A DNA stretch of 44,299 nucleotides, from the IMG/VR virus record IMGVR_UViG_3300015203_000006, positions 1 to 44,299 of that record. One strand, 5' to 3'. The translations under genes and the position numbers were made by a program. Source of the DNA: a virus. Below, in pieces: positions 1-44,299 of this stretch; position 1 is the stretch's first letter, and each line of letters opens with the position of its first letter. The notes below the pieces were generated by a model that was not told the origin of the DNA, searched no databases, and worked only from the letters and a program-made list of their open reading frames with translations.

Positions 1-291
1 TCCCTGGCAGCGTCCCTGGCAGCGGCCCCGGCAGCGGCCCAGGTAGCGTCCCAGGCAGCGTCCCTGGCAGCGTCCCTGGCAGCGTCCCTGGCAGCGGCCC
101 AGGTAGCGTCCCAGGCAGCGTCCCTGGCAGCGTCCCTGGCAGCGTCCCTGGCAGCGTCCCCGGCAGCGGCCCAGGTAGCGGCCCAGGTAGCGTCCCAGGC
201 AGCGTCCCTGGCAGCGGCCCCGGCAGCGGCCCAGGTAGCGTCCCAGGCAGCGTCCCTGGCAGCGTCCCTGGCAGCGTCCCTGGCAGCGGCC
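1..291. repeat. Tandem 12-nt repeat array, 24 units (window-start copy)
   Basis: Read directly. Units are A=tccctggcagcg, B=gccccggcagcg, C=gcccaggtagcg, D=tcccaggcagcg, E=tccccggcagcg, in the order AABCDAAACDAAAECCDABCDAAA, followed by gcc. There are no spacers. The array lies in frame inside a minus-strand ORF. Confidence 0.97.
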
Positions 292-728: not shown

Positions 729-1198
729 CGGGTTCCGCTTTCTGTGCGTCCGGCGAGGGCGGCGTCGTGGGCGCGGATACTCGCCCACTCGATGCCGGCG
801 GCGACGTGGTGCAGGATGCTGAGCGAGCTGGCCTGGTCGTGGGCCCGGGCATGGGCATGGCAGAGCTCGTCACCTTCGACGGTGACCACCGAGAATGATT
901 CGCAGTAGTGGCATTGCTCGGGCAGGGTCGTGGCCTCATACAGGTCTCCGCCGAAGGCCTCAGCCTGGGACGGGGTCAGGGTGACGGTGAATGTGTCAGC
1001 CCAGGCCCGTTCGAGGGCCGCGGTGTACAGGTCGGTTTCCGGTGCGCCGGGTTCGAGGTGGTGGAGTGCGACGAGGTTCCCGATCTGCGCCGGGGTGAGC
1101 TGGGCAGCGAGGGCCTCGATGATCGGGCCCGGGTCCAGGGTGATTTCGATCGACCACGTATCAACATCAACAATCTGTTGAACCGTGACGGGGTTCAT
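725..1198 (-). CDS. Hypothetical protein, 157 aa
   Basis: ORF track gives 725..1252. The preferred ATG at 1198 overlaps the stop of the HNH gene (ATGA). Contains a CxxC...CxH-like motif (QCHYCESF...ELCHAH). No family recognised. Confidence 0.65.
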   Translation of the reverse strand: MNPVTVQQIVDVDTWSIEITLDPGPIIEALAAQLTPAQIGNLVALHHLEPGAPETDLYTAALERAWADTFTVTLTPSQAEAFGGDLYEATTLPEQCHYCESFSVVTVEGDELCHAHARAHDQASSLSILHHVAAGIEWASIRAHDAALAGRTESGTR

Positions 1199-1755
1199 GA
1201 CGCACGCTCCGCACGCCAGCGGGCAACATTTATCCTGTTGCACTCCCGGCAATACCGTGAACCCCTGTAGATACGAGTGTTGGCCTCGGTGTATTCGTGT
1301 CCCTGTGGGCAGTGGGTGACTGCTGATTCGGCGCTGACATTCCGTCCTTTGCTGTACATGTCTTTGTTGTTATCGGCTTGTGTCCCAAGGAAGAGATGCT
1401 CGATGTCGTTGCACGGCGGGTTATCACAGTGGTGAAGGACGTGGAGCCCGTCAGGGATCGGGCCGTTGGCGAGCTCCCACGCGAGGCGTGTTGTCTTGAC
1501 CGTCTTGTGGTCGACTCTGATCTGCCCGTAACCGTCTCTGGTGGTGCTGCGGGTCCATTCGAGACAGCCATTCGGTTGACGGACCAGTCCAGCGGCGAGG
1601 CGCTCGGCGGGCGAGAGCGCAGGTAGCGGTTCAATCTCTCCATGTCTTCGCATGTATGTGTAATGAGCTGAGCACATTCCGCGCGACGCGACGCTCTTGG
1701 CGCAGTCCTCCACGGAACAGACGGCGGCTTGGGCGGGTGCGCTGGTGCTGGTCAT
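1195..1755 (-). CDS. HNH homing-type endonuclease (paralog 1 of 4)
   Basis: 186 aa. N-terminal CSVEDC...GMCSAHY zinc knuckle, then GYGQ. HNH core is HVLHHCDNPPCNDIEHLFLGTQADNNKDM. C-terminal ribbon is HCPQGHEY..N..CRECN. Same architecture as 31348..31905 and 38453..39046. Confidence 0.9.
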   Translation of the reverse strand: MTSTSAPAQAAVCSVEDCAKSVASRGMCSAHYTYMRRHGEIEPLPALSPAERLAAGLVRQPNGCLEWTRSTTRDGYGQIRVDHKTVKTTRLAWELANGPIPDGLHVLHHCDNPPCNDIEHLFLGTQADNNKDMYSKGRNVSAESAVTHCPQGHEYTEANTRIYRGSRYCRECNRINVARWRAERAS

Positions 1756-2336: not shown

Positions 2337-3066
2337 TGGCCAGCTCCATCTCCGCGGCGTAGGTGATCAGCGCGTCCGCGAGATGGCGGATGGTGGCCGG
2401 GGTGTGCAACTCCCTGTTGTGTGGGGTTGCGCCAAGAGCGCCGGTCTTCCACGCCTGCAGTACGCGGGCGCGGTGCTCGGGGACCATCAGCCCTTCGAGG
2501 GAGCCCAGTGCGAACCCGAAGTTCTCACAAGCCTTCTCGGCGTCGTACTTGGCCAGGGCGTCGCCTTCGAGGACCGGCTGCTGTGTGCGTCGCGCCTTGA
2601 CTGGGGGAGGATCGGCGGCAGGCGTCGGCTCGGGTATCGGCTCAGCCTTGGCTGGCTCCGGCTTCGGTGCGACTTCCTCGCGGGCCTCGCTGATCGTCTT
2701 GGCTGTGACTTTGCCGCCGGACTCATGGGCTTTGACCATGACCTCAGCCGCGACCTCGGGTGTGAGGCCGGTCAGAGCGCGGGCTTGACCCTCGTTGGCG
2801 GGTAGCGGAGTGTCGCCAATTGGCGACATCGCGTCGACGGTCTGCGCCGCGTCCATCAGTCGGTACGCGCGGCTCGGGCTAAAACTCCAACGGTCCTGGC
2901 AGTAGTCCTCGAAGGTCGAGTAGTCCTGGTAGTAGAGCCGCTGGGCACCGATCGCGGTCAGTTCACGGCCGACGTCGAGGAAGGTCCGCAGCCCGCGTTC
3001 GATGACCTCTTCGCGACGGGCTAGGTCGGCGTCGACGGCGGCGTCGCGGACCGTGACGACTGTCAT
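2329..3066 (-). CDS. Putative DNA-binding protein (ParB/KorB-like HTH motif), 245 aa
   Basis: ORF track gives 2329..3444, but the first 126 aa are Arg/Pro-rich shadow sequence. The ATG at 3066 overlaps the stop of the upstream gene (ATGA). The motif YSTFEDYCQDRWSFSPSRAYRLMDAA resembles the HTH of phage ParB/KorB-like proteins. A Pro/Ala/Glu-rich linker follows. Confidence 0.6.
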   Translation of the reverse strand: MTVVTVRDAAVDADLARREEVIERGLRTFLDVGRELTAIGAQRLYYQDYSTFEDYCQDRWSFSPSRAYRLMDAAQTVDAMSPIGDTPLPANEGQARALTGLTPEVAAEVMVKAHESGGKVTAKTISEAREEVAPKPEPAKAEPIPEPTPAADPPPVKARRTQQPVLEGDALAKYDAEKACENFGFALGSLEGLMVPEHRARVLQAWKTGALGATPHNRELHTPATIRHLADALITYAAEMELANV

Positions 3067-3266
3067 GACGCGACTGGCGTGGCGAGTTCTGGGAACCAGT
3101 TGCGAAGGGTCTGACCTCGGATCGGGACGCCGGTGGTGTTGTCGAGGACTCGGGCGATGGCCTCCCACGACGCGCCACTGTTGCGGCTTGCTGTGACGTA
3201 CTGTGCGAGGGGTTCGGAGAGCCGGGCCTCGATGAGTTGGTAGCTGCGGGTCTGATCCGGGTTCAT
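3063..3266 (-). CDS. Cro-like early HTH DNA-binding protein, 67 aa (start uncertain)
   Basis: ORF track gives 3063..3344 from a TTG. The first 25 codons have poor third-position GC, so the ATG at 3266 (MNPDQTRSYQLIE...) is preferred. HTH-like segment: ASWEAIARVLDNTTGVPIRGQTLRNWF. Transcribed divergently from the repressor. Confidence 0.55.
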   Translation of the reverse strand: MNPDQTRSYQLIEARLSEPLAQYVTASRNSGASWEAIARVLDNTTGVPIRGQTLRNWFPELATPVAS

Positions 3267-3357
3267 GCCTCGTAGATTGGCATATCCAATCTGATTGTGC
3301 AACCCGTTTACCCACTCGTTCGCAAACGGCTTGCCAAATGACAATGGTTAGCCCATC
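3267..3357. promoter_or_regulatory. Divergent switch region between Cro-like gene and repressor, with a 19-bp palindromic operator candidate
   Basis: 91-bp locally AT-richer intergenic region. Perfect palindrome agattgg-catat-ccaatct at 3274..3292, abutting the Cro-like gene start. TTGCCA at 3331..3336 is a possible -35 for the plus strand. The promoter hexamers are not convincing by eye. Confidence 0.5.
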
Positions 3358-3705
3358 ATGGGCGACATGAGTACACAGAGGCACGAGCACCGGGACGTAC
3401 CCGCAGACACGTTCGAGATGCGCCTGGCCATGGCGCGCTTCCATGCTGGGAACATCTCAGCCAACGAGGCCGCGCTGCGCGTCGGAGTGAACGGTCAGAC
3501 ATGGCGGAACTGGGAGGCGGGCACCAGCCCGGGTGCTCACCAGCCTGCGATGCTCGCGTTCATCGCGCAGCAGCTCGGAGTGGACCAGGATTGGCTACGC
3601 AACGGCGGCCCACTCAGCAACCCGGACTCGCCCAATTCTCGCCCTGATGCCGATACCGTTGAGTATTCGCACCGGCGCAGGCTCATGCTCGCGCCTGCGG
3701 CCTAG
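3358..3705 (+). CDS. Immunity repressor, XRE-type HTH, 115 aa, with Ala-Ala C-terminus
   Basis: HTH_3-like segment FEMRLAMARFHAGNISANEAALRVGVNGQTWRNWEAG...IAQQLGVDQDWL. Low-complexity tail PLSNPDSPNSRPDADTVEYSHRRRLMLAPAA. Its TAG overlaps the integrase start (TAGTG). Confidence 0.8.
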   Translation: MGDMSTQRHEHRDVPADTFEMRLAMARFHAGNISANEAALRVGVNGQTWRNWEAGTSPGAHQPAMLAFIAQQLGVDQDWLRNGGPLSNPDSPNSRPDADTVEYSHRRRLMLAPAA

Positions 3706-4565
3706 TGATGTCCGCCACAGTCCTACCTTTCAACGCGGCGTGTCGCTTGCCAGCGGTCCACGATGCCGCTATGAGCAGATTCACAGGTTTCGAGCCGTGG
3801 CTACGAGCGAACAACTGTGGTGACAGCACCGTCCACTACCGTCTCGCGCACCTAAGAGACTTCGCAGCCCACCATCCGCGGTTCCCGAACGTCACCCCGG
3901 GTGAGATCACGAACTGGCTCGGACGGATCGGCTACATGCCGTGGAGCCGAGCGACGTTCTACGGGCATTTGAGGTCCTACTTCACGTTCGCCATCGACGC
4001 CGGGATCGTCACCGTCGACCCGATGGCCAGGATGCGACGGCCCAGGCAGGGCAAGAGTGTCCCCCGCCCGTTGAACCCGGCCCAGGTCCGGACGGTGATG
4101 GCTGCGAGGAACGCGAACGTCCGGGCATGGCTGACGTTGGCGCTGTACGCGGGGTTGCGTGCGCACGAGATCGCGAAGATCCGGGGGGAGGACGTTGAGG
4201 AACGCCAACTGTACGTGGTGGGCAAGGGCGGCTCTGAGGCGTACCTGCCGACGCACCCGCTGGTCTGGGCGCTGGCGTTGGAGCGGCCCGCTGCGGGTTG
4301 GTGGTTCCCGACGATCGCCGACACAGGGCATGTGTCTGCGCGGTCGGTGTCGGCGATCACTGGTCGGGTGTTCGCTGCTAACGGGATCGAGGGGAGTATT
4401 CACCGCGGTAGGCATACCTACGCCACCGAGCTTCTGCGGGCCGGAGCCAACGTCAGGGTTGTGCAGACGCTTATGCGTCATGCGTCTTTGCAGTCGACGA
4501 TGGTCTACACGGCCGTCGACGAGGACGAGCGGCGGGACGCGATCGCCCTGCTCCTGGCGGCGTGA
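3705..4565 (+). CDS. int: Tyrosine integrase
   Basis: Box I: LTLALYAGLRAHEI. Box II: HRGRHTYATELLRAGANVRVVQTLMRHASLQSTMVYTAV (H-x-x-R ... Y). Start is GTG 3705 or ATG 3708. C-terminus is ...RRDAIALLLAA. Confidence 0.95.
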   Translation: MMSATVLPFNAACRLPAVHDAAMSRFTGFEPWLRANNCGDSTVHYRLAHLRDFAAHHPRFPNVTPGEITNWLGRIGYMPWSRATFYGHLRSYFTFAIDAGIVTVDPMARMRRPRQGKSVPRPLNPAQVRTVMAARNANVRAWLTLALYAGLRAHEIAKIRGEDVEERQLYVVGKGGSEAYLPTHPLVWALALERPAAGWWFPTIADTGHVSARSVSAITGRVFAANGIEGSIHRGRHTYATELLRAGANVRVVQTLMRHASLQSTMVYTAVDEDERRDAIALLLAA

Positions 4566-4639
4566 TGTTCGACACGATCCGGGGCCGCGACCCGCGTAAC
4601 CGGTTAGGTTCCGTCCACTACCACCATCGAGGGATCACC

Positions 4640-5041
4640 ATGAACCGCAGGTTCGCAGTCGCTGTAACCGTCCTACTCGCCGCTGGCAGCCTGACCGGGT
4701 GCGGTGGTGGCGGGACGAAGGTTGACACCTCGTCTGCGTCGGCCATAGCCGCGGCGATGGACAAGGGCGGGTTCACCTGTACGGGGTGGAAGGCGAACCC
4801 GGCAGCAGTCGGTCCGAAGGAGTCGGGTAGCTGCGACCACGGCGGGACTGCTATCACGGTGTCGACGTTTGAGAGCGCGGATCAGATGAAGCGGGTCGTT
4901 GACTCGATTTCTAAGGCGTTTGGTCAGGACCCGGCGGCCAGTGGTACGGGGGCTGTGATTGGGGATGCGTGGATGGTTACGCCGGGCGACGCGTCGCAGG
5001 GTGCCGCGATCCAGAAGATCATCGGCGGGACCGTCAAGTAA
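4640..5041 (+). CDS. Secreted lipoprotein, 133 aa, in the lysogeny module
   Basis: The ORF-track ORF 4562..5041 is trimmed to the ATG at 4640, which follows a gaggga SD. Signal peptide plus lipobox: MNRRFAVAVTVLLAAGSLTGCGGGG. Same strand as the repressor and integrase. Confidence 0.8.
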   Translation: MNRRFAVAVTVLLAAGSLTGCGGGGTKVDTSSASAIAAAMDKGGFTCTGWKANPAAVGPKESGSCDHGGTAITVSTFESADQMKRVVDSISKAFGQDPAASGTGAVIGDAWMVTPGDASQGAAIQKIIGGTVK

Positions 5042-5057
5042 CCGGGACGTAGTGAAG

Positions 5058-5100
5058 CGCCCCACCCTTGAGGCCGGAGGGGCGGCTCAAGGGTGGGGCG
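5058..5100. terminator. Bidirectional hairpin terminator between convergent genes
   Basis: Perfect 15-bp stem: cgccccacccttgag (5058..5072) pairs with ctcaagggtggggcg (5086..5100), with a 13-nt loop. It starts 17 nt after the lipoprotein stop. Confidence 0.7.
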
Positions 5101-5254
5101 GGTCAGCGCCTGCTGGTCCGGACCGGCCGGGCTGTCAGCAGGCAGGTATCACGGCGCCGGTCGTCACGTAAAGGTGCATGGCACATCCCTGTAACGTGCG
5201 AAGATTCGGCCCTGTTCTTGGCACGTGCCTTTGAATCTTCGGGTCGGGCGGCAC

Positions 5255-5545
5255 TTACGGCGCCGGCGGCGGGGTGGGTGGAGCGTCAGCGACAGCCTCA
5301 CCCTGCACGGACGCGAGGAACTTGTCCGCTGCGGTGAAGTCCAGGGGTGCACCAGCAGCATGCTGGGCTTTGAGCTCGGCGATGACGGTCGCGAACGCGT
5401 CCGTCTCGGCTTTCACGTCGGCGTCGAGGTGGGCCTGGTCTGCGTTGATCTCGGTCATGATGTCTCCAATTTCTTCGAGTCGTGCATCGATGCGGCTGGC
5501 CCAGGTGGACCAGTCACGGTAGGTGAGGTAGCGGAAGCCCGTCAT
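5255..5545 (-). CDS. Hypothetical coiled-coil protein, 96 aa, last gene of the lysis region
   Basis: ORF track gives 5255..5653. The ATG at 5545 overlaps the holin stop (ATGA). Sequence MTGFRYLTYRDWSTW...; Pro-rich C-terminus PPTPPPAP. Confidence 0.65.
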   Translation of the reverse strand: MTGFRYLTYRDWSTWASRIDARLEEIGDIMTEINADQAHLDADVKAETDAFATVIAELKAQHAAGAPLDFTAADKFLASVQGEAVADAPPTPPPAP

Positions 5546-5826: not shown

Positions 5827-5972
5827 GGTGCTCCTTCTGTCGCTTCTCCCACGTCGCGGTCGGGTGGGGGTGTCACTTCGGCGCCGACGAACACGGAGGT
5901 GTCGATCGTGTCGAAGGGGTGTGGGGTTGCGTGGAGGTCGTCGGGGTGGATCTGCCGGTCAGCCCACGTCAC
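5823..5972 (-). CDS. Small acidic ORF, 49 aa, bridging the LuxR gene and the holin
   Basis: Not in the ORF track (<60 aa). The GTG at 5972 overlaps the LuxR TGA (GTGA). Its TGA overlaps the holin ATG (ATGA). Third-position GC is high over the first two thirds. Peptide: VTWADRQIHPDDLHATPHPFDTIDTSVFVGAEVTPPPDRDVGEATEGAP. Confidence 0.4.
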   Translation of the reverse strand: MTWADRQIHPDDLHATPHPFDTIDTSVFVGAEVTPPPDRDVGEATEGAP

Positions 5973-6361
5973 AGTTCATCGCCGCCTTCCTGGTCTGCAT
6001 GGTCTTCTGGTGGTGTTTCCAGGCCAAGGTGGACACCCGCCATCGCCGCAGCGCCCCGGTTATGCACCCCGGTCTTCTGGTAGATGGCGCCGATATGGCT
6101 CTTCACGGTGCTCAGGCTGAGGTAGAACCGTTTCGCTATGTCGTCGCTGGAGTCTCCCGCCATGATCCGGATCAGGATCTCCTGCTCACGTTTGGACAGG
6201 GCTTTTTCGAGCCTGGAGACGATGACTTCGGGCGGGACCAACACGGCGGCGAGGATGTTGGCGGCGGTCAGTGCGTGCTCGAGGCGTGCGACTTCGACGT
6301 TGAGGCGGATGATCTCTGCCCGTGCGTCAGCGAGTGACCGCAGCGTCGCTTGGATGGGCAT
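5969..6361 (-). CDS. LuxR/GerE-type HTH transcriptional regulator, 130 aa
   Basis: C-terminal GerE signature SKREQEILIRIMAGDSSDDIAKRFYLSLSTVKSHIGAIYQKTGVHNRGAAAMAG. N-terminal coiled coil of about 55 aa. No receiver or autoinducer domain. Confidence 0.85.
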   Translation of the reverse strand: MPIQATLRSLADARAEIIRLNVEVARLEHALTAANILAAVLVPPEVIVSRLEKALSKREQEILIRIMAGDSSDDIAKRFYLSLSTVKSHIGAIYQKTGVHNRGAAAMAGVHLGLETPPEDHADQEGGDEL

Positions 6362-8200: not shown

Positions 8201-9577
8201 TCAGACCTTGGAGACGGAGATTCCTGAGACTGTGACCGTGCCACCAGAGAGGTTCGTGGAGCGGAAACCCAGTTGTGCGTAAAGCATGTCGATGGCGCTG
8301 GCGTCGGCAGCCGTTGCCGGGAGGGTGAACTTCGTACTGGTGAGTGTCACGTCACCGGAGGCCGCCACGTCCGGCCCAGTCAGGCTCGACTCGAAGGACG
8401 AGGGCTCGGTCCCTGTTTGACCAAACGTGTTGTTGGTCGCGTTGAAACTGCCGCTGGCTGCTGCGCGGAAACTGAACAGCATGTAGGGCGAGAAGTTACG
8501 CATCGCCGCAGACCAGGTGAGCCCCGACCAGCGGAACCGTGCCCGCATCTGCAGCCGGTCGCCGATGTGGATACGTGGGCCGAAGGTCTCCGCGTAGGAC
8601 CACTGGACCCCGCCAGCCGCCACGGTCGCAGTGGCGAGGTTGCCGATCCCGTCAGGGTCACGGGTGTACGTTCCCGCGGTGCCTATCTGCAACGCCCAAC
8701 CGGCACCGTTGGTCAGCATCGACTGGTTACCAATACCGACCAGAGCATCGGTGTCCGCGTAGCGCAGCAGCGGAGCCGGTGATGCGTAGGGGCGCATAGC
8801 GTTGGCCACTTGCACACCGACCCGGTAGGCGCCACCGCTGCCGGGGTGGATGATGTTGTCAAAGGTCATCGGCGTGTTAGCCATCCCGGTTGCTGGGTCT
8901 ACTAGCACCGAGTACGCGTCAGCGACCACCAGCCCCTTGCGGGTCAGCGGCAACGCGGCGATCCACTGGGAGACCTGGGCGGCGATCTGCTTGCGGCTGG
9001 TCGTGGAGTAGGAGTTCGACGGCCAGGTGGTCACGATGCAGCACTTGCGACCTGCGGCGTCGATGGCGTTCAGGATCGTGGTCAGGTCCGTGGTGATCGC
9101 GGCGAAGGTCCGGTCAGCGGCCACGTCATTGCCGGACTCCTCGACCACAACCCATTCGCTCGGGTAGTTGGTCAACTCGGTGCTGATGCGAGCAGCGAGA
9201 GCGCTGGTCTGCTCGCCACCCACACCACGCACTGCTACGACGGAGTAGCGCTCTCCCATGAGCCAGTTCGCCCAGTTGAAGAAGCCCCGCGCCGAGTAGG
9301 CATCTGCGACGTCAAGGAGGTTGGACATTCCGCACTGCGCGGTGATCGAGTCACCCACCAGCAGAACCGTTGGGCGCATCCCAGCCCGCGTCAGATAGGT
9401 CGCATTAGCTGACGCCGTGTCGATCAGGTAAGGCAACACGTTCCACGCGGTCACACCGTCGCCGCGTTTCGTCTTCCCGGTGTCGGTCTCGAATCCGAGC
9501 TCACCCACAGCCAGGACCGGGTTAGACGCGGCCGCGGCGGCGGCGGTGTTGCGGCGCGGCTGAATGGTGATGCTCAC
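8201..9577 (-). CDS. Tail fibre/minor tail protein with an SGNH (GDSL) hydrolase domain, 458 aa
   Basis: N-terminal fibre motif LAVGELGFETDTGKTKRGDGVTAWNVLPY. SGNH blocks: LLVGDSIT (I), VRGVGGEQT (II), ESGNDV (III), DNIIHPG (V). The GTG at 9577 overlaps the upstream stop. Confidence 0.8.
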   Translation of the reverse strand: MSITIQPRRNTAAAAAASNPVLAVGELGFETDTGKTKRGDGVTAWNVLPYLIDTASANATYLTRAGMRPTVLLVGDSITAQCGMSNLLDVADAYSARGFFNWANWLMGERYSVVAVRGVGGEQTSALAARISTELTNYPSEWVVVEESGNDVAADRTFAAITTDLTTILNAIDAAGRKCCIVTTWPSNSYSTTSRKQIAAQVSQWIAALPLTRKGLVVADAYSVLVDPATGMANTPMTFDNIIHPGSGGAYRVGVQVANAMRPYASPAPLLRYADTDALVGIGNQSMLTNGAGWALQIGTAGTYTRDPDGIGNLATATVAAGGVQWSYAETFGPRIHIGDRLQMRARFRWSGLTWSAAMRNFSPYMLFSFRAAASGSFNATNNTFGQTGTEPSSFESSLTGPDVAASGDVTLTSTKFTLPATAADASAIDMLYAQLGFRSTNLSGGTVTVSGISVSKV

Positions 9578-30606: not shown

Positions 30607-31134
30607 TCACCTCCTGACGCGCGGCGCCCGCTTTGCTTCCGCTCTGCGATCGTTCGCACGCTTACATTCGAGGCAGGTCCGTGACCCGCTTGTGCCGACG
30701 TACCAGGATTCTGGTCCGGTGATGTCGTGAAGTCCGTTCTTGCAGAGCGTCCGCAATGGGGTGAACCCGAGTAGCCCACGCTCGATATTCAGTCCTTGGG
30801 GGACAGCTTCGAGGTGGTTGGGGTTCACACATGCCGTCACGCGACAGAGGTGGTCGAGCACTAGACCATCGGGGATGGCGCCCTTGAACGCCTCATAGAC
30901 GAGCCTGTGTGCCATCTGGTTGGGGTGGCCGTATCGGCCGTAGCCGTAGGTGTTGAATGAGCCGCGCCAGATCCAGCACTCGTCCGGTGAGCCGATGTCG
31001 TAGAAGTCTGTTACCGCGCCTGAGATTCGCGTCTGGTTGAGGTGGCCGTGTCGCTTGAATCGCATGTAGTGCTTGTTGCACAGACCATGCGCCTTGATGG
31101 TGCCGTCACATTCGCTCTCTGAGCACGTTGCCAC
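30607..31134 (-). CDS. HNH homing-type endonuclease (paralog 2, most divergent), 175 aa
   Basis: CSESEC...GLCNKHY knuckle and YGYGRYG. Core is VLDHLCRVTACVNPNHLEAVPQGLNIERG. C-terminal ribbon is CKNGLH...CLECKR. GTG start. Confidence 0.85.
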   Translation of the reverse strand: MATCSESECDGTIKAHGLCNKHYMRFKRHGHLNQTRISGAVTDFYDIGSPDECWIWRGSFNTYGYGRYGHPNQMAHRLVYEAFKGAIPDGLVLDHLCRVTACVNPNHLEAVPQGLNIERGLLGFTPLRTLCKNGLHDITGPESWYVGTSGSRTCLECKRANDRRAEAKRAPRVRR

Positions 31135-31207: not shown

Positions 31208-31348
31208 TCAGTAGTACCGCCGGCCACCTGGCCTGACGAGCAGGAGTACGCAGCCCGCGATGGCCAGGATCACGCCAATGGTGAAGAGCACGGACAGGCC
31301 GGGCACGAGGAGCCCGAGGACGATCAGGATGACTCCGAGAATTACCAT
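31208..31348 (-). CDS. Small two-TM membrane peptide, 46 aa
   Basis: Not in the ORF track. The ATG at 31348 shares one nt with the upstream HNH TGA. Peptide: MVILGVILIVLGLLVPGLSVLFTIGVILAIAGCVLLLVRPGGRRYY. Confidence 0.55.
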   Translation of the reverse strand: MVILGVILIVLGLLVPGLSVLFTIGVILAIAGCVLLLVRPGGRRYY

Positions 31349-31905
31349 CAGCGAAAGACCCTCTCCTTCTGTCCTTGCTTACGTCTGTAGCGTTGATTAG
31401 CGGCATATCGGCATGTCCGACATGACCGACAACCCTGGGGGCCGACGAAGGTGTTTGCCTCGGTGAACTCATGTCCTTGCGGACAGTGAGTCTTGAACGT
31501 CGGAGCACGGCCCCGATGTTTGGCTGCCATGTCCGCCAAATTGTCAGACTGAGTGCCCAGGAACATGTGCTCGGGGTTGCAGCACGGAGGGTTGTCGCAC
31601 TTGTGGCAGATGACCATGCCTTCAGGAATCGGCCCATTCACGAGTTCCCAGGCAAGACGGTGGGTACTGACCCTCTTGCCGTCGAAGTAGATCACTCCGT
31701 ACCCGTTACGAGAGGTTCCTCCGGGCCAGTCAAGACATCCGTTGGGTTGCTCTATGAGTCGGCTCCAGAGTCGCCACTCAATCGAAGGTCTTGGCAGCAA
31801 CTCCAGGGCGCCCGATGCACGCATCTGGTTGTAGTGCACGATGCACATCCCTCGTGCGATCCTGCCCACACGCTCGCATCCATCAACACTGCAAGTACCG
31901 TTCAT
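31348..31905 (-). CDS. HNH homing-type endonuclease (paralog 3), 185 aa
   Basis: CSVDGC...GMCIVHY and NGYGVIY. Core is VICHKCDNPPCCNPEHMFLGTQSDNLADM. C-terminal ribbon is HCPQGHEF..N..CRSCRTC. Confidence 0.9.
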   Translation of the reverse strand: MNGTCSVDGCERVGRIARGMCIVHYNQMRASGALELLPRPSIEWRLWSRLIEQPNGCLDWPGGTSRNGYGVIYFDGKRVSTHRLAWELVNGPIPEGMVICHKCDNPPCCNPEHMFLGTQSDNLADMAAKHRGRAPTFKTHCPQGHEFTEANTFVGPQGCRSCRTCRYAANQRYRRKQGQKERVFR

Positions 31906-38452: not shown

Positions 38453-39046
38453 TCACGACGTCCCCTTAGTGCGGGTGTGCCAACGGTCACGAGCACAGGC
38501 GCGGCACCTTCGGTAGCCCTTGGGGGTCACATGAGTGTTGGCCTCGTCGTAAGCGTGACCTTGTGGGCAGTGGGTTATGGCTCGCTGGGCTTCACCTTGT
38601 CTGCCTCGCTTTTTGGCGAGCATGTCAGCGTTGTTGTCCGCCTTGGTTCCGAGGAAAAGATGTCCGTCGGGGTATGCCTCGGATGGTGAGGTTTCACAGC
38701 AGGGCGGGTTATCGCAGTGGTGAAGGACGCAGAGCCCGTCAGGGATGGGACCGTACGCGAGTTCCCAGGCGAAACGATGAGCAAGAACCCCCTTGCCCAT
38801 CTGCCCGTAACCCTGGGGCGTCCGGTGTCTGGTCCATTCGAGGCAGCCGTTCGGTGTGCGGATCAAGGAGGCAGTGAATCGTTCGGCTGGTGTGGCTGGT
38901 GTGGGGAGTGGTTCAAGGCGGCCTTGTTTCCGTAGCTGCTCGTAGTGCGTCCCGCACATGCCACGCCGTATTTTGCCGCCGCGGTCGCAGCCCTCTACGG
39001 AACAAACCTTGGTGGTCACAGGCAGGCCGCGCGGTGGCGGGGTCAT
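38453..39046 (-). CDS. HNH homing-type endonuclease (paralog 4), 197 aa
   Basis: CSVEGC...GMCGTHY and QGYGQMG. Core is VLHHCDNPPCCETSPSEAYPDGHLFLGTKADNNADM. C-terminal ribbon is HCPQGHAY..N..CRACAR. A 44-nt core stretch (38703..38746) is 41/44 identical to 1415..1458. Confidence 0.9.
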   Translation of the reverse strand: MTPPPRGLPVTTKVCSVEGCDRGGKIRRGMCGTHYEQLRKQGRLEPLPTPATPAERFTASLIRTPNGCLEWTRHRTPQGYGQMGKGVLAHRFAWELAYGPIPDGLCVLHHCDNPPCCETSPSEAYPDGHLFLGTKADNNADMLAKKRGRQGEAQRAITHCPQGHAYDEANTHVTPKGYRRCRACARDRWHTRTKGTS

Positions 39047-43924: not shown

Positions 43925-44299
43925 GGGGTCACCGCTGACGGGTTGATCATCTTGTCGAGCAGGGTCAGCGCTGATTCTTGGAGGGTGGTGACGGTCGGCG
44001 CCAGAGCGTCCCTGGCAGCGTCCCTGGCAGCGGCCCCGGCAGCGGCCCAGGTAGCGTCCCAGGCAGCGTCCCTGGCAGCGTCCCTGGCAGCGTCCCCGGC
44101 AGCGGCCCAGGTAGCGTCCCAGGCAGCGTCCCTGGCAGCGTCCCTGGCAGCGTCCCTGGCAGCGTCCCCGGCAGCGGCCCAGGTAGCGGCCCAGGCAGCG
44201 TCCCTGGCAGCGTCCCTGGCAGCGGCCCCGGCAGCGGCCCAGGTAGCGTCCCAGGCAGCGTCCCTGGCAGCGTCCCTGGCAGCGTCCCTGGCAGCGGCC
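43921..44299 (-). CDS. Tetrapeptide-repeat protein: repeat tract plus C-terminal tail (open at window end)
   Basis: Manual translation in the same unit register as 1..291: ...([24 protein letters not shown])n ALAPTVTTLQESALTLLDKMINPSAVTP, with stop TGA at 43923..43921. Not in the ORF track because it is open-ended. Confidence 0.75.
   Translation of the reverse strand, partial: AAARDAARDAARDAAWDATWAAAGAAARDAARDAAWAATWAAAGDAARDAARDAARDAAWDATWAAAGDAARDAARDAAWDATWAAAGAAARDAARDALAPTVTTLQESALTLLDKMINPSAVTP
44009..44299. repeat. Tandem 12-nt repeat array, 24 units (window-end copy)
   Basis: Unit order is AABCDAAECDAAAECFAABCDAAA + gcc, with F=gcccaggcagcg. It differs from 1..291 at only three single nucleotides (units 8, 16 and 17). 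The last 27 nt are identical to the first 27 nt of the window. Confidence 0.97.

Follow-up and report, generated by a model that had tools for sequence, protein, structure and literature searches.

The locus considered here raises the question of whether a phage repressor gene and an integrase gene that overlap one another form a switch in which integration itself decides whether the repressor persists. It lies at positions 3063..4565 of the IMG/VR virus record IMGVR_UViG_3300015203_000006, which was analysed over its whole length of 44,299 nucleotides (hereafter the window), and comprises a small divergent gene, an immunity repressor gene (rep) and a tyrosine integrase gene (int). Integration-dependent immunity is the simplest known switch between lysis and lysogeny in phages, and its design has been proposed to be ancestral. 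The described cases are mostly those of Mycobacterium and Gordonia phages and of a few prophages. A first-pass annotation of the window had suggested that this phage follows the logic of the mycobacteriophages BPs, Brujita and Charlie, with its attachment site, attP, inside the repressor open reading frame (ORF). Our comparisons make it very likely that the window carries an integration-dependent immunity cassette of the Brujita/BPs kind, working as a switch. They draw on the homology of both proteins, on the lysogens of relatives and on a short motif in the repressor tail, as we discuss below. The defining features of such systems have been described (PMC3694055; PMC4557955; PMC9934374).

The repressor ORF abuts the integrase ORF, as the first-pass annotation had noted: the repressor stop TAG (3703..3705) shares a base with the GTG of int at 3705, giving a TAGTG overlap at 3703..3707. 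Together with the divergent gene the two form a compact unit of about 1.5 kb in total, with rep and int adjacent and co-directional. The integrase matches PF00589 (Phage_integrase, E 7.7e-18), and its residues R151, K173, H232, R235, H258 and Y267, which we take to be the catalytic R-K-H-R-H-Y set of the family, are in columns that are invariant in an alignment of 36 homologs. Its best PDB match is 5vfz_A, 'Gp33' (E 4.8e-41), over nearly the full length (residues 28-279 against 26-281), with XerC/XerD-like structures far behind (E 3.7e-16); the product of the Brujita integrase gene has the name Gp33. By tblastn the protein shares 39.5% identity with Brujita gp33, as it does with many other mycobacteriophage integrases, and matches 544 phage records, mostly of Mycobacterium and Gordonia phages. 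The Brujita integrase is the type member of a subgroup of simple tyrosine recombinases, IntBrujita, that have no arm-binding domain (Smyshlyaev et al., 2021; PMC8138268); it is described there as arm-less and directionless with reference to Lunt and Hatfull (2016). The window's integrase appears to fit this subgroup, having core-binding and catalytic domains only, an assignment made by the PDB match. No excisionase family of the PHROGs was found among 30 scanned ORFs (the early region and the gene after int), most of which are without any annotation. The cassette thus seems to pair a simple integrase with no recognisable excisionase. A single-sequence query with the integrase had no match in IMG/VR, and the relatives from that database discussed below came from a profile query (loci and proteins of relatives are given by L and P handles).

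The repressor has weak matches to HTH_19 and HTH_31 in Pfam, and only 24 homologs were found in a search of 5.8 billion proteins. Alignment of these homologs gives a highly conserved N-terminal part, with a helix-turn-helix (HTH) fold, that extends to ...WLRDGGPL (...WLRNGGPL in the window), followed by tails that differ in length and sequence; the window's own variable tail ends in ...LMLAPAA. Similarity reaches the immunity repressors of the Gordonia phages Schnabeltier and Bowser (about 35% identity) and, in a direct comparison, Brujita gp34 (31% identity over 78 residues, E 1e-9). Homology of both integrase and repressor to those of Brujita upholds the likeness to mycobacteriophages that had been drawn at first from the letters alone. 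Several of the homologous tails contain the peptides GLEPRTQW, GSNPQPTDYE or IRDSNPEPADL, which we presume to be translated 3' halves of tRNA genes. By eye, a T-arm-like segment is present in the tails of P0016, P0019, P0020, P0022, P0023 and P0013, and in the window's tail there is none. Two proteins without an Ala-Ala end, P0003 and P0013, were considered as prophage forms and rejected, because int lies directly downstream of them and they are therefore free forms.

Both window proteins end in Ala-Ala, the repressor in ...LMLAPAA and the integrase in ...ALLLAA, and the resemblance of these ends to the ssrA degradation tag had suggested the switch in the first place. Five of the 51 predicted window proteins end in this way, these two included, so that two Ala-Ala ends in one genome are by themselves mildly unusual, and their weight lies in their conservation among homologs and not in the two occurrences. 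An Ala-Ala end is present in 18 of the 24 repressor homologs and in neither of the prophage-form repressors described below. Among the 120 best integrase homologs it is present in 62, most others ending in VA or AS, and every close relative of the integrase (the ...AI..L.AA clade) ends in ...L[VLMAP]AA. For homologs of a second integrase of the family the corresponding counts are 58 of 115 for AA and 30 of 115 for VA. From their sequences, repressor and integrase alike appear to carry an ssrA-like tag.

The most direct evidence comes from natural lysogens of relatives. Scanning one genome per species across 185,579 species with the repressor profile gave two loci only, both in Nocardioides (strains T2.26MG-1 and PD653). 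On a single 303-kb contig of T2.26MG-1, the repressor homolog, 64% identical to the window's over 90 residues, stands at one prophage end, where it is the last phage gene. It has a cro-like gene and early genes on one side, and host genes for a DUF2785 protein, a PdtaS-type histidine kinase, WhiB and a sigma factor on the other; no integrase gene lies next to it. One is found about 49.5 kb off on this contig (P0146, 42% identical to the integrase of the window), in the same orientation and as the first phage gene beside a host TPP-enzyme gene, with lysis and tail genes after it. Only one string of at least 9 bp, the 12-bp TACTCACCCGTA, is common to both junction regions. On the repressor side the frame reads ...CCT GCT ACT CAC CCG TAA, so that the protein has 105 amino acids (aa), ends in ...PATHP and stops at the junction. 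Rejoining the prophage ends in silico gives a repressor of 114 aa that ends in ...ATHPYPPLLTLAA (...PATHPYPPLLTLAA), with int beginning 40 bp on; the remnant YPPLLTLAA, with its stop, is found at the opposite prophage end, 40 bp before int. When the host site is rejoined, the core coincides with the stop codon that ends the DUF2785 gene (...AAYLTLTGE), and the TPP-enzyme gene starts a few bases further on.

The PD653 prophage is a different one at the same host position. It was read on the repressor side only, where the repressor ends in ...AVTGP with GTTACTGGCCCGTAG at the junction. L012, a free-form relative, has GTTACTCACCCGTATCC within a tail that ends in ...TLIGLAA and is followed by int. 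In homologous systems of this repressor family the attP core thus lies inside the repressor ORF. Three features have been described for such systems: a core in the repressor ORF with a remnant at the other att site, a stop at the junction that shortens the repressor, and an AA tag on the piece that is lost (PMC9934374). All three are found in the relatives, the shortening at the junction in T2.26MG-1. The first-pass annotation had predicted prophage copies in which a 3'-truncated repressor gene is fused to host DNA, and this is what the closest sequenced relatives have, in T2.26MG-1 and on the repressor side of PD653.

The junction repeat of T2.26MG-1 has the form TAC-N6-GTA and stands in the repressor frame as xxT ACN NNN NNG TAy, encoding Thr-x-x-Tyr. 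A site of the same form, TACCGTTGAGTA, is present in the repressor tail of the window (Table 1). The 44.3-kb window contains two TAC-N6-GTA sites, against 1.25 expected, and one of them is in the cassette; we estimate the chance of such a site in the 94-nt tail at about 0.003. The second site, at 9236..9247 (TACGACGGAGTA) within an ORF of 458 aa (8201..9577, minus strand), is probably due to chance. The motif occurs once per tail, in frame as T-x-x-Y, in the window, L001 (TACCGTTCAGTA), L005 (TACCGTTGGGTA), L007 (TACCACTGGGTA) and L012, and also at the L002 and L008 junctions. T-x-x-Y is found within the last 40 residues of 12 of the 24 repressor homologs. Across the loci examined the motif is 9-25 residues from the C-terminus, and 13 in the window. 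Because the window's site has the form, frame register and place in the tail of the T2.26MG-1 repeat, and because the motif is kept in diverged tails, we consider it probable, by analogy, that the attP core is exactly at 3654..3665.

This position is inside the interval of 3600..3705 that the first-pass annotation had given for the core, and is reached by homology to the junctions of relatives. The argument from composition that had accompanied that interval fails: the supposedly AT-richer stretch at 3620..3690 has 62.0% GC as against 64.6% for the window, and 36% of 71-nt windows are at least as AT-rich. No tRNA-like segment had been seen there either, which is explained by the use in this lineage of a 12-bp non-tRNA core, placed in T2.26MG-1 at the 3' end of a protein-coding gene. 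ARAGORN found no tRNA gene in the window, L001, L002 or L008; with this result, and with no T-arm-like segment visible in the tail, a tRNA-type attP in the window was rejected.

Table 1. Features of the cassette and its control region, in window coordinates
Feature	Position	Strand	Remarks
Divergent gene in Cro position	3063..3266	-	67 aa from ATG 3266; mechanical ORF list reaches TTG 3344
Divergent control region between cro-like gene and repressor ATG	3267..3357	.	91 bp
Perfect palindrome, candidate operator	3274..3292	.	AGATTGGCATATCCAATCT; 19 bp, 7-nt arms, 5-nt spacer
Promoter-like site, candidate Prep	3331..3359	+	TTGCCA-17-CATCAT; consensus match only
Immunity repressor, viral (full-length, tagged) form	3358..3705	+	115 aa, or 112 aa with start at 3367; ends ...RRRLMLAPAA
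Predicted attP common core	3654..3665	.	TACCGTTGAGTA; TAC-N6-GTA; gaT ACC GTT GAG TAt = (D)TVEY, same register as T2.26MG-1 repeat
Segment predicted to be lost on integration	3664..3705	+	codons Y103-A115 (YSHRRRLMLAPAA, ssrA-like ...AA end) and stop
Tyrosine integrase, simple arm-less Brujita type	3705/3708..4565	+	286 aa from GTG 3705, 285 aa from ATG 3708; ends ...RRDAIALLLAA

A working model can be put together from these elements. The rep and int genes would be transcribed rightwards as one unit from the 91-bp region, and the cro-like gene and the early lytic genes leftwards. In the free phage the 13-residue Ala-Ala tail would deliver the repressor to host proteases, as an ssrA tag does, and there would be no immunity. 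The integrase would be tagged likewise, and its level would report the state of the host proteases. When enough integrase is present, the 12-bp TACCGTTGAGTA would recombine with a matching host site, and integration would place int and the segment that encodes the tail at the opposite end of the prophage, leaving a repressor gene that ends at the junction. The predicted junction edges are ...GATACCGTTGAGTA on the phage side of attL and TACCGTTGAGTATTCGCACC... on the phage side of attR. If the final TA of the core is followed by a host A or G, Tyr-103 would become a stop codon, and the resulting stable repressor of about 102 aa would bind the operator and keep lysogeny. Excision by the same integrase, with no excisionase, would rebuild the tagged gene and remove immunity. 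The position of the core and the outcome at the stop codon are predictions modelled on the relatives' junctions; proteolysis, operator binding and excision without an excisionase we infer from the reference systems.

Several observations weigh against this reading. The evidence from lysogens concerns phages with an integrase that shares only 42% identity with that of the window, and no lysogen of the window's own tail type was found in sequenced genomes (the 24 homologs and the scan of 185,579 species). Neither the attB nor the attL or attR of the window phage was found in the genome scan, in IMG/VR or in the metagenome scan. Ala-Ala ends are not rare in the window, with three among the 49 other proteins, and position -3 of the window's repressor is Pro and not hydrophobic (...APAA). 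Free-form relatives without such an end exist (L001, ...LAWAS; L010, ...RAVA; L071, ...PAAS), so either the tag is not universal or other endings also work. An excisionase may have gone unrecognised, since most small early ORFs carry no annotation. The tails of L010, L013, L023 and L024 contain no exact TAC-N6-GTA; of these, L010, whose repressor is 93% identical to the window's in its HTH part, has TACCGTTGAGGA.

The failure to find attB carries little weight, because a core of 12 bp is undetectable by similarity search; the scans of the collections required a pattern of at least 14 bases, and the core falls below this. An exact 17-mer, ATACCGTTGAGTATTCG, had no match in IMG/VR. One scan of the JGI metagenome contigs with the predicted 20-mer of the attL side, GATGCCGATACCGTTGAGTA, gave two matches, L017 and L018, and both were rejected as attB. 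The match in L017 (862..881) is in the middle of a gene for an MFS-type transporter, its identity stops at the ends of the pattern, and by a rough estimate about one chance match is expected; that in L018, a contig of 54% GC, is at chance level. L017 is a metagenome contig of 62% GC that also carries an apparent HD-GYP-type gene.

The alternative that survives best keeps the integration-dependent system and places the crossover elsewhere, in another part of the repressor tail, at the rep/int junction or in the first int codons (about 3600..3770). The window core has been positioned by analogy, the four tails without an exact motif indicate that the integrase may tolerate other half-sites, and other short symmetric elements are present nearby. 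One of these is a 10-nt inverted match (90% complementary) between 3596..3605, in the conserved WLRNGG codons, and 3656..3665, in the predicted core (TACGCAACGG and CCGTTGAGTA). Neither L012 nor L005 conserves it, as judged by eye; it was rejected as an element and taken as a coincidence. We nonetheless regard a crossover elsewhere as unlikely: TACCGTTGAGTA is the sole TAC-N6-GTA in the cassette and one of only two in 44.3 kb, it has the frame register of T2.26MG-1, its distance of 13 residues from the C-terminus is inside the range of the relatives, and the motif is kept where the rest of the tail has diverged.

A conventional temperate phage, with attP outside the repressor, an intact repressor in lysogens and Ala-Ala ends that are coincidental, is less probable still. 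Alanine makes up 13% of residues, the three other Ala-Ala proteins make coincidence conceivable, no attB was found for the window, and a non-coding stretch of 213 bp (5042..5254) after the gene that comes next to int, rich in inverted repeats, might have housed attP. It was rejected as an alternative attP, because its inverted repeats are only of the hairpin type, between convergent genes, and because the junctions of relatives are not beyond int: those of T2.26MG-1 are in the repressor tail and just upstream of int, and the repressor side of PD653 agrees. The repeats at 5053..5105 in particular resemble a hairpin between convergent genes. Further against such a phage, Ala-Ala ends are conserved among repressor and integrase homologs and absent from both prophage-form repressors, and an arm-less integrase of the Brujita type lacks the N-terminal arm-binding domain that a complex attP would call for. 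Just as improbable is a cassette of integration-dependent descent that no longer works as a switch (for example for want of a matching attB in the current host), in a phage that is effectively lytic: neither a lysogen nor an attB was recovered from the 185,579 species-representative genomes or the JGI metagenome contigs, and Bowser offers the precedent of a tagged repressor without a findable attP that was proposed to work in another host (Pope et al., 2017; PMC5559632), but all the parts are intact here, from the invariant catalytic-type columns and the conserved repressor HTH to the palindrome and the core motif, and a 12-bp core is beyond similarity searches.

The divergent orientation and the position of the gene that the first-pass annotation called Cro-like are borne out, but the label finds no match: the 67-aa protein belongs to no family in Pfam or PHROG, and we call it Cro for its position and orientation. 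A syntenic homolog adjoins the repressor in L001, L002 and L008. In a second contig with an identical repressor, from Logan run ERR4837134, an independent gene call gives 67 aa for cro, 115 aa for rep and 285 aa for int; the start of the divergent gene is therefore placed at ATG 3266 and the gap at 91 bp, which agrees with the 91-bp divergent region described at first. The 19-bp palindrome noted within it occurs in a single copy in the window even when three mismatches are allowed (0 expected), and an identical or near-identical one is found at the equivalent place in L010 and L001. It may be the site to which the repressor binds. The promoter-like site is the sole sigma-70-like site in 3000..5400 (one found against 0.1 expected in shuffled sequences). 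If used, this candidate Prep would yield a leaderless repressor mRNA with its 5' end near the second ATG at 3367, and the MSTQ... start of most repressor homologs agrees with initiation there.

Comparison with described systems shows what is shared and what departs from them. Brujita (cluster I1; gp33 Int, gp34 Rep, gp35) has the same order of small divergent gene, rep and int, with rep and int co-directional, and both its proteins end in AA (Rep ...NEHAA, Int ...PLSAA); the integrases and the repressor HTH domains are homologous (39.5% and 31% identity, as given above). In contrast to the window, the Brujita repressor tail has a tRNA-derived segment, GESNPRPIHYQTT, 133 bp separate its rep and int where the window's genes overlap, its divergent gene is unrelated (annotated as a MerR-like regulator, as against 67 aa without a family), and the host genus is different. 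BPs (cluster G; gp32 Int, gp33 Rep, gp34 Cro) is the experimentally dissected reference, compared here by description. Integration removes 33 residues from its repressor, compared with 9 in the T2.26MG-1 relative and a predicted 13 in the window.

Among isolated phages the closest repressor homologs are gp40 of the Gordonia phages Bowser and Schnabeltier. Bowser shares the tagged ends (gp40 ...GMVAA; Int gp39 ...LDPAA), but has about 490 bp between rep and int, and no TAC-N6-GTA was found in its tail region. For Bowser, no attP could be identified by similarity to the host, and it was suggested that the system evolved for another host (Pope et al., 2017; PMC5559632). The Bifidobacterium prophages Bb423phi2 and 689b-1 and the M. 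abscessus prophages MabB and MabN resemble T2.26MG-1 in that rejoining their att sites restores an ssrA-like tail and in that rep is beside one att site and int beside the other. They use tRNA genes, with a core of 39 bp in the Bifidobacterium pair, whereas T2.26MG-1 uses a core of 12 bp at the DUF2785 stop codon. The departures from the textbook cases are thus a 12-bp core that is not of tRNA origin (where it can be read), a lost tail of 9-13 residues, and overlapping rep and int without a spacer. Because predicted systems, and attB sites outside tRNA genes, have already been described for other actinobacterial phages, of Gordonia (PMC5559632), Bifidobacterium (PMC6109161) and M. abscessus (PMC9934374), the window offers a further example of a known system and not a new kind. 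As far as the literature consulted shows, the system has not been described before in this phage group and host genus.

Relatives with more distant repressors bear on how far the motif extends. L019 and L020, from IMG/VR and with related integrases, have tails containing ...TEVTVRYHTYPLELARAA with TACTGTCCGGTA, and L022, from the same database and also with a related integrase, has the tail ...TTRWYADN... with TACTCGCTGGTA. By eye their repressors look unlike the window's, an indication that the motif accompanies the integrase and does not follow the descent of the repressor. A generalisation can be offered, tentatively and as something still to be doubted: throughout this branch the attachment site may have been cut down to a 12-bp TAC-N6-GTA, carried in the repressor tail as Thr-x-x-Tyr, with TAY turned into a TAA or TAG stop on integration, with targets shifting through the six spacer bases and with the motif travelling with the integrase. 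This would also explain why the attP of tagged repressors such as Bowser gp40 has escaped similarity searches.

Other relatives show variations around the same gene pair. In L004 (364..976), the repressor P0005 is 86% identical to the window's in its HTH part, has 95 aa and ends in ...DRYPVAA. Its tail has GGATA-N8-TATCC in place of TAC-N6-GTA, and it is followed by the start of an apparently different integrase, with an N-terminus unlike that of the window's; this suggests that tail and integrase modules are swapped as units. The T2.26MG-1 prophage carries a second tyrosine recombinase of 299 aa (L015, 9507..10406, minus strand; a faint PF02899 match and PF00589), about 0.7 kb past the junction-proximal integrase, and the two recall Gordonia phages with two integrases. 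In L027, a contig from IMG/VR, a related integrase is reduced to its final ~55 codons (2710..3168, plus strand; ...DERRDAIRLLAA), joined to unrelated sequence, and an adjoining ORF of 81 aa (2484..2729, minus strand) resembles an excisionase-type HTH protein. This locus looks like what is left of such a cassette after decay.

Taken as a whole, the window appears to be a complete, non-integrated genome of a temperate phage of the siphovirus type, about 44 kb long, and its host is probably Nocardioides or a close relative. No nucleotide similarity to isolated phages was found over 3000..5300 by megablast or blastn. The layout of strands suggests that the minus strand carries structural and lysis genes between about 29 kb and 5.3 kb. 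Early genes, also on the minus strand, include RecE/RecT-like, RusA, WhiB-like and PAPS-reductase-like genes and four HNH endonucleases. The four HNH genes (1195..1755, 30607..31134, 31348..31905 and 38453..39046, all minus strand) belong to the same family, phrog_826 (E 1e-34 to 1e-45), and are unusually many for a phage of 44 kb. A tandem array of a 12-bp unit, TCCCTGGCAGCG, occupies 1..291 and 44005..44299, with about 24 copies per end and about 90% matches; a coding repeat and an iteron-like array are both conceivable. The ends of the window are identical over 99 bp inside this array, so that circular closure through it is likely.

The gene right after int (4640..5041, plus strand) encodes a protein of 133 aa, without a family match, that has a signal peptide and, in ...LAAGSLTGCGGGG, a lipobox-like motif. 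In a lysogen it would be at the prophage end beside int, and it is a candidate for a lipoprotein expressed from the prophage, perhaps one for exclusion. A strong hairpin with 20-nt arms (5053..5105) follows 3' of it, between convergent genes. At 5969..6361 (minus strand), among genes that by position and sequence appear to be lysis genes, is a regulator of the LuxR/GerE HTH family (PF00196, E 2.3e-14).

The concept of integration-dependent immunity is unchanged by these findings, and their general interest is modest. What they add is that the window and about two dozen relatives extend the system to phages of the Nocardioides type, known mostly from metagenomes, and that two natural lysogens among the relatives allow the truncation of the repressor to be read directly. 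The relatives also show a minimal form of the system, in which a non-tRNA core of 12 bp sits at the stop codon of a protein-coding host gene. Since a core of this length escapes the usual similarity search for attP and attB, such systems may be under-counted, and a short core of this sort may explain cases of a tag without an attP such as Bowser gp40. Nocardioides is a genus of interest for biodegradation, and the cassette of about 1.5 kb, with its integrase, 12-bp site and tagged repressor, could serve there as a tool for integration and switching.

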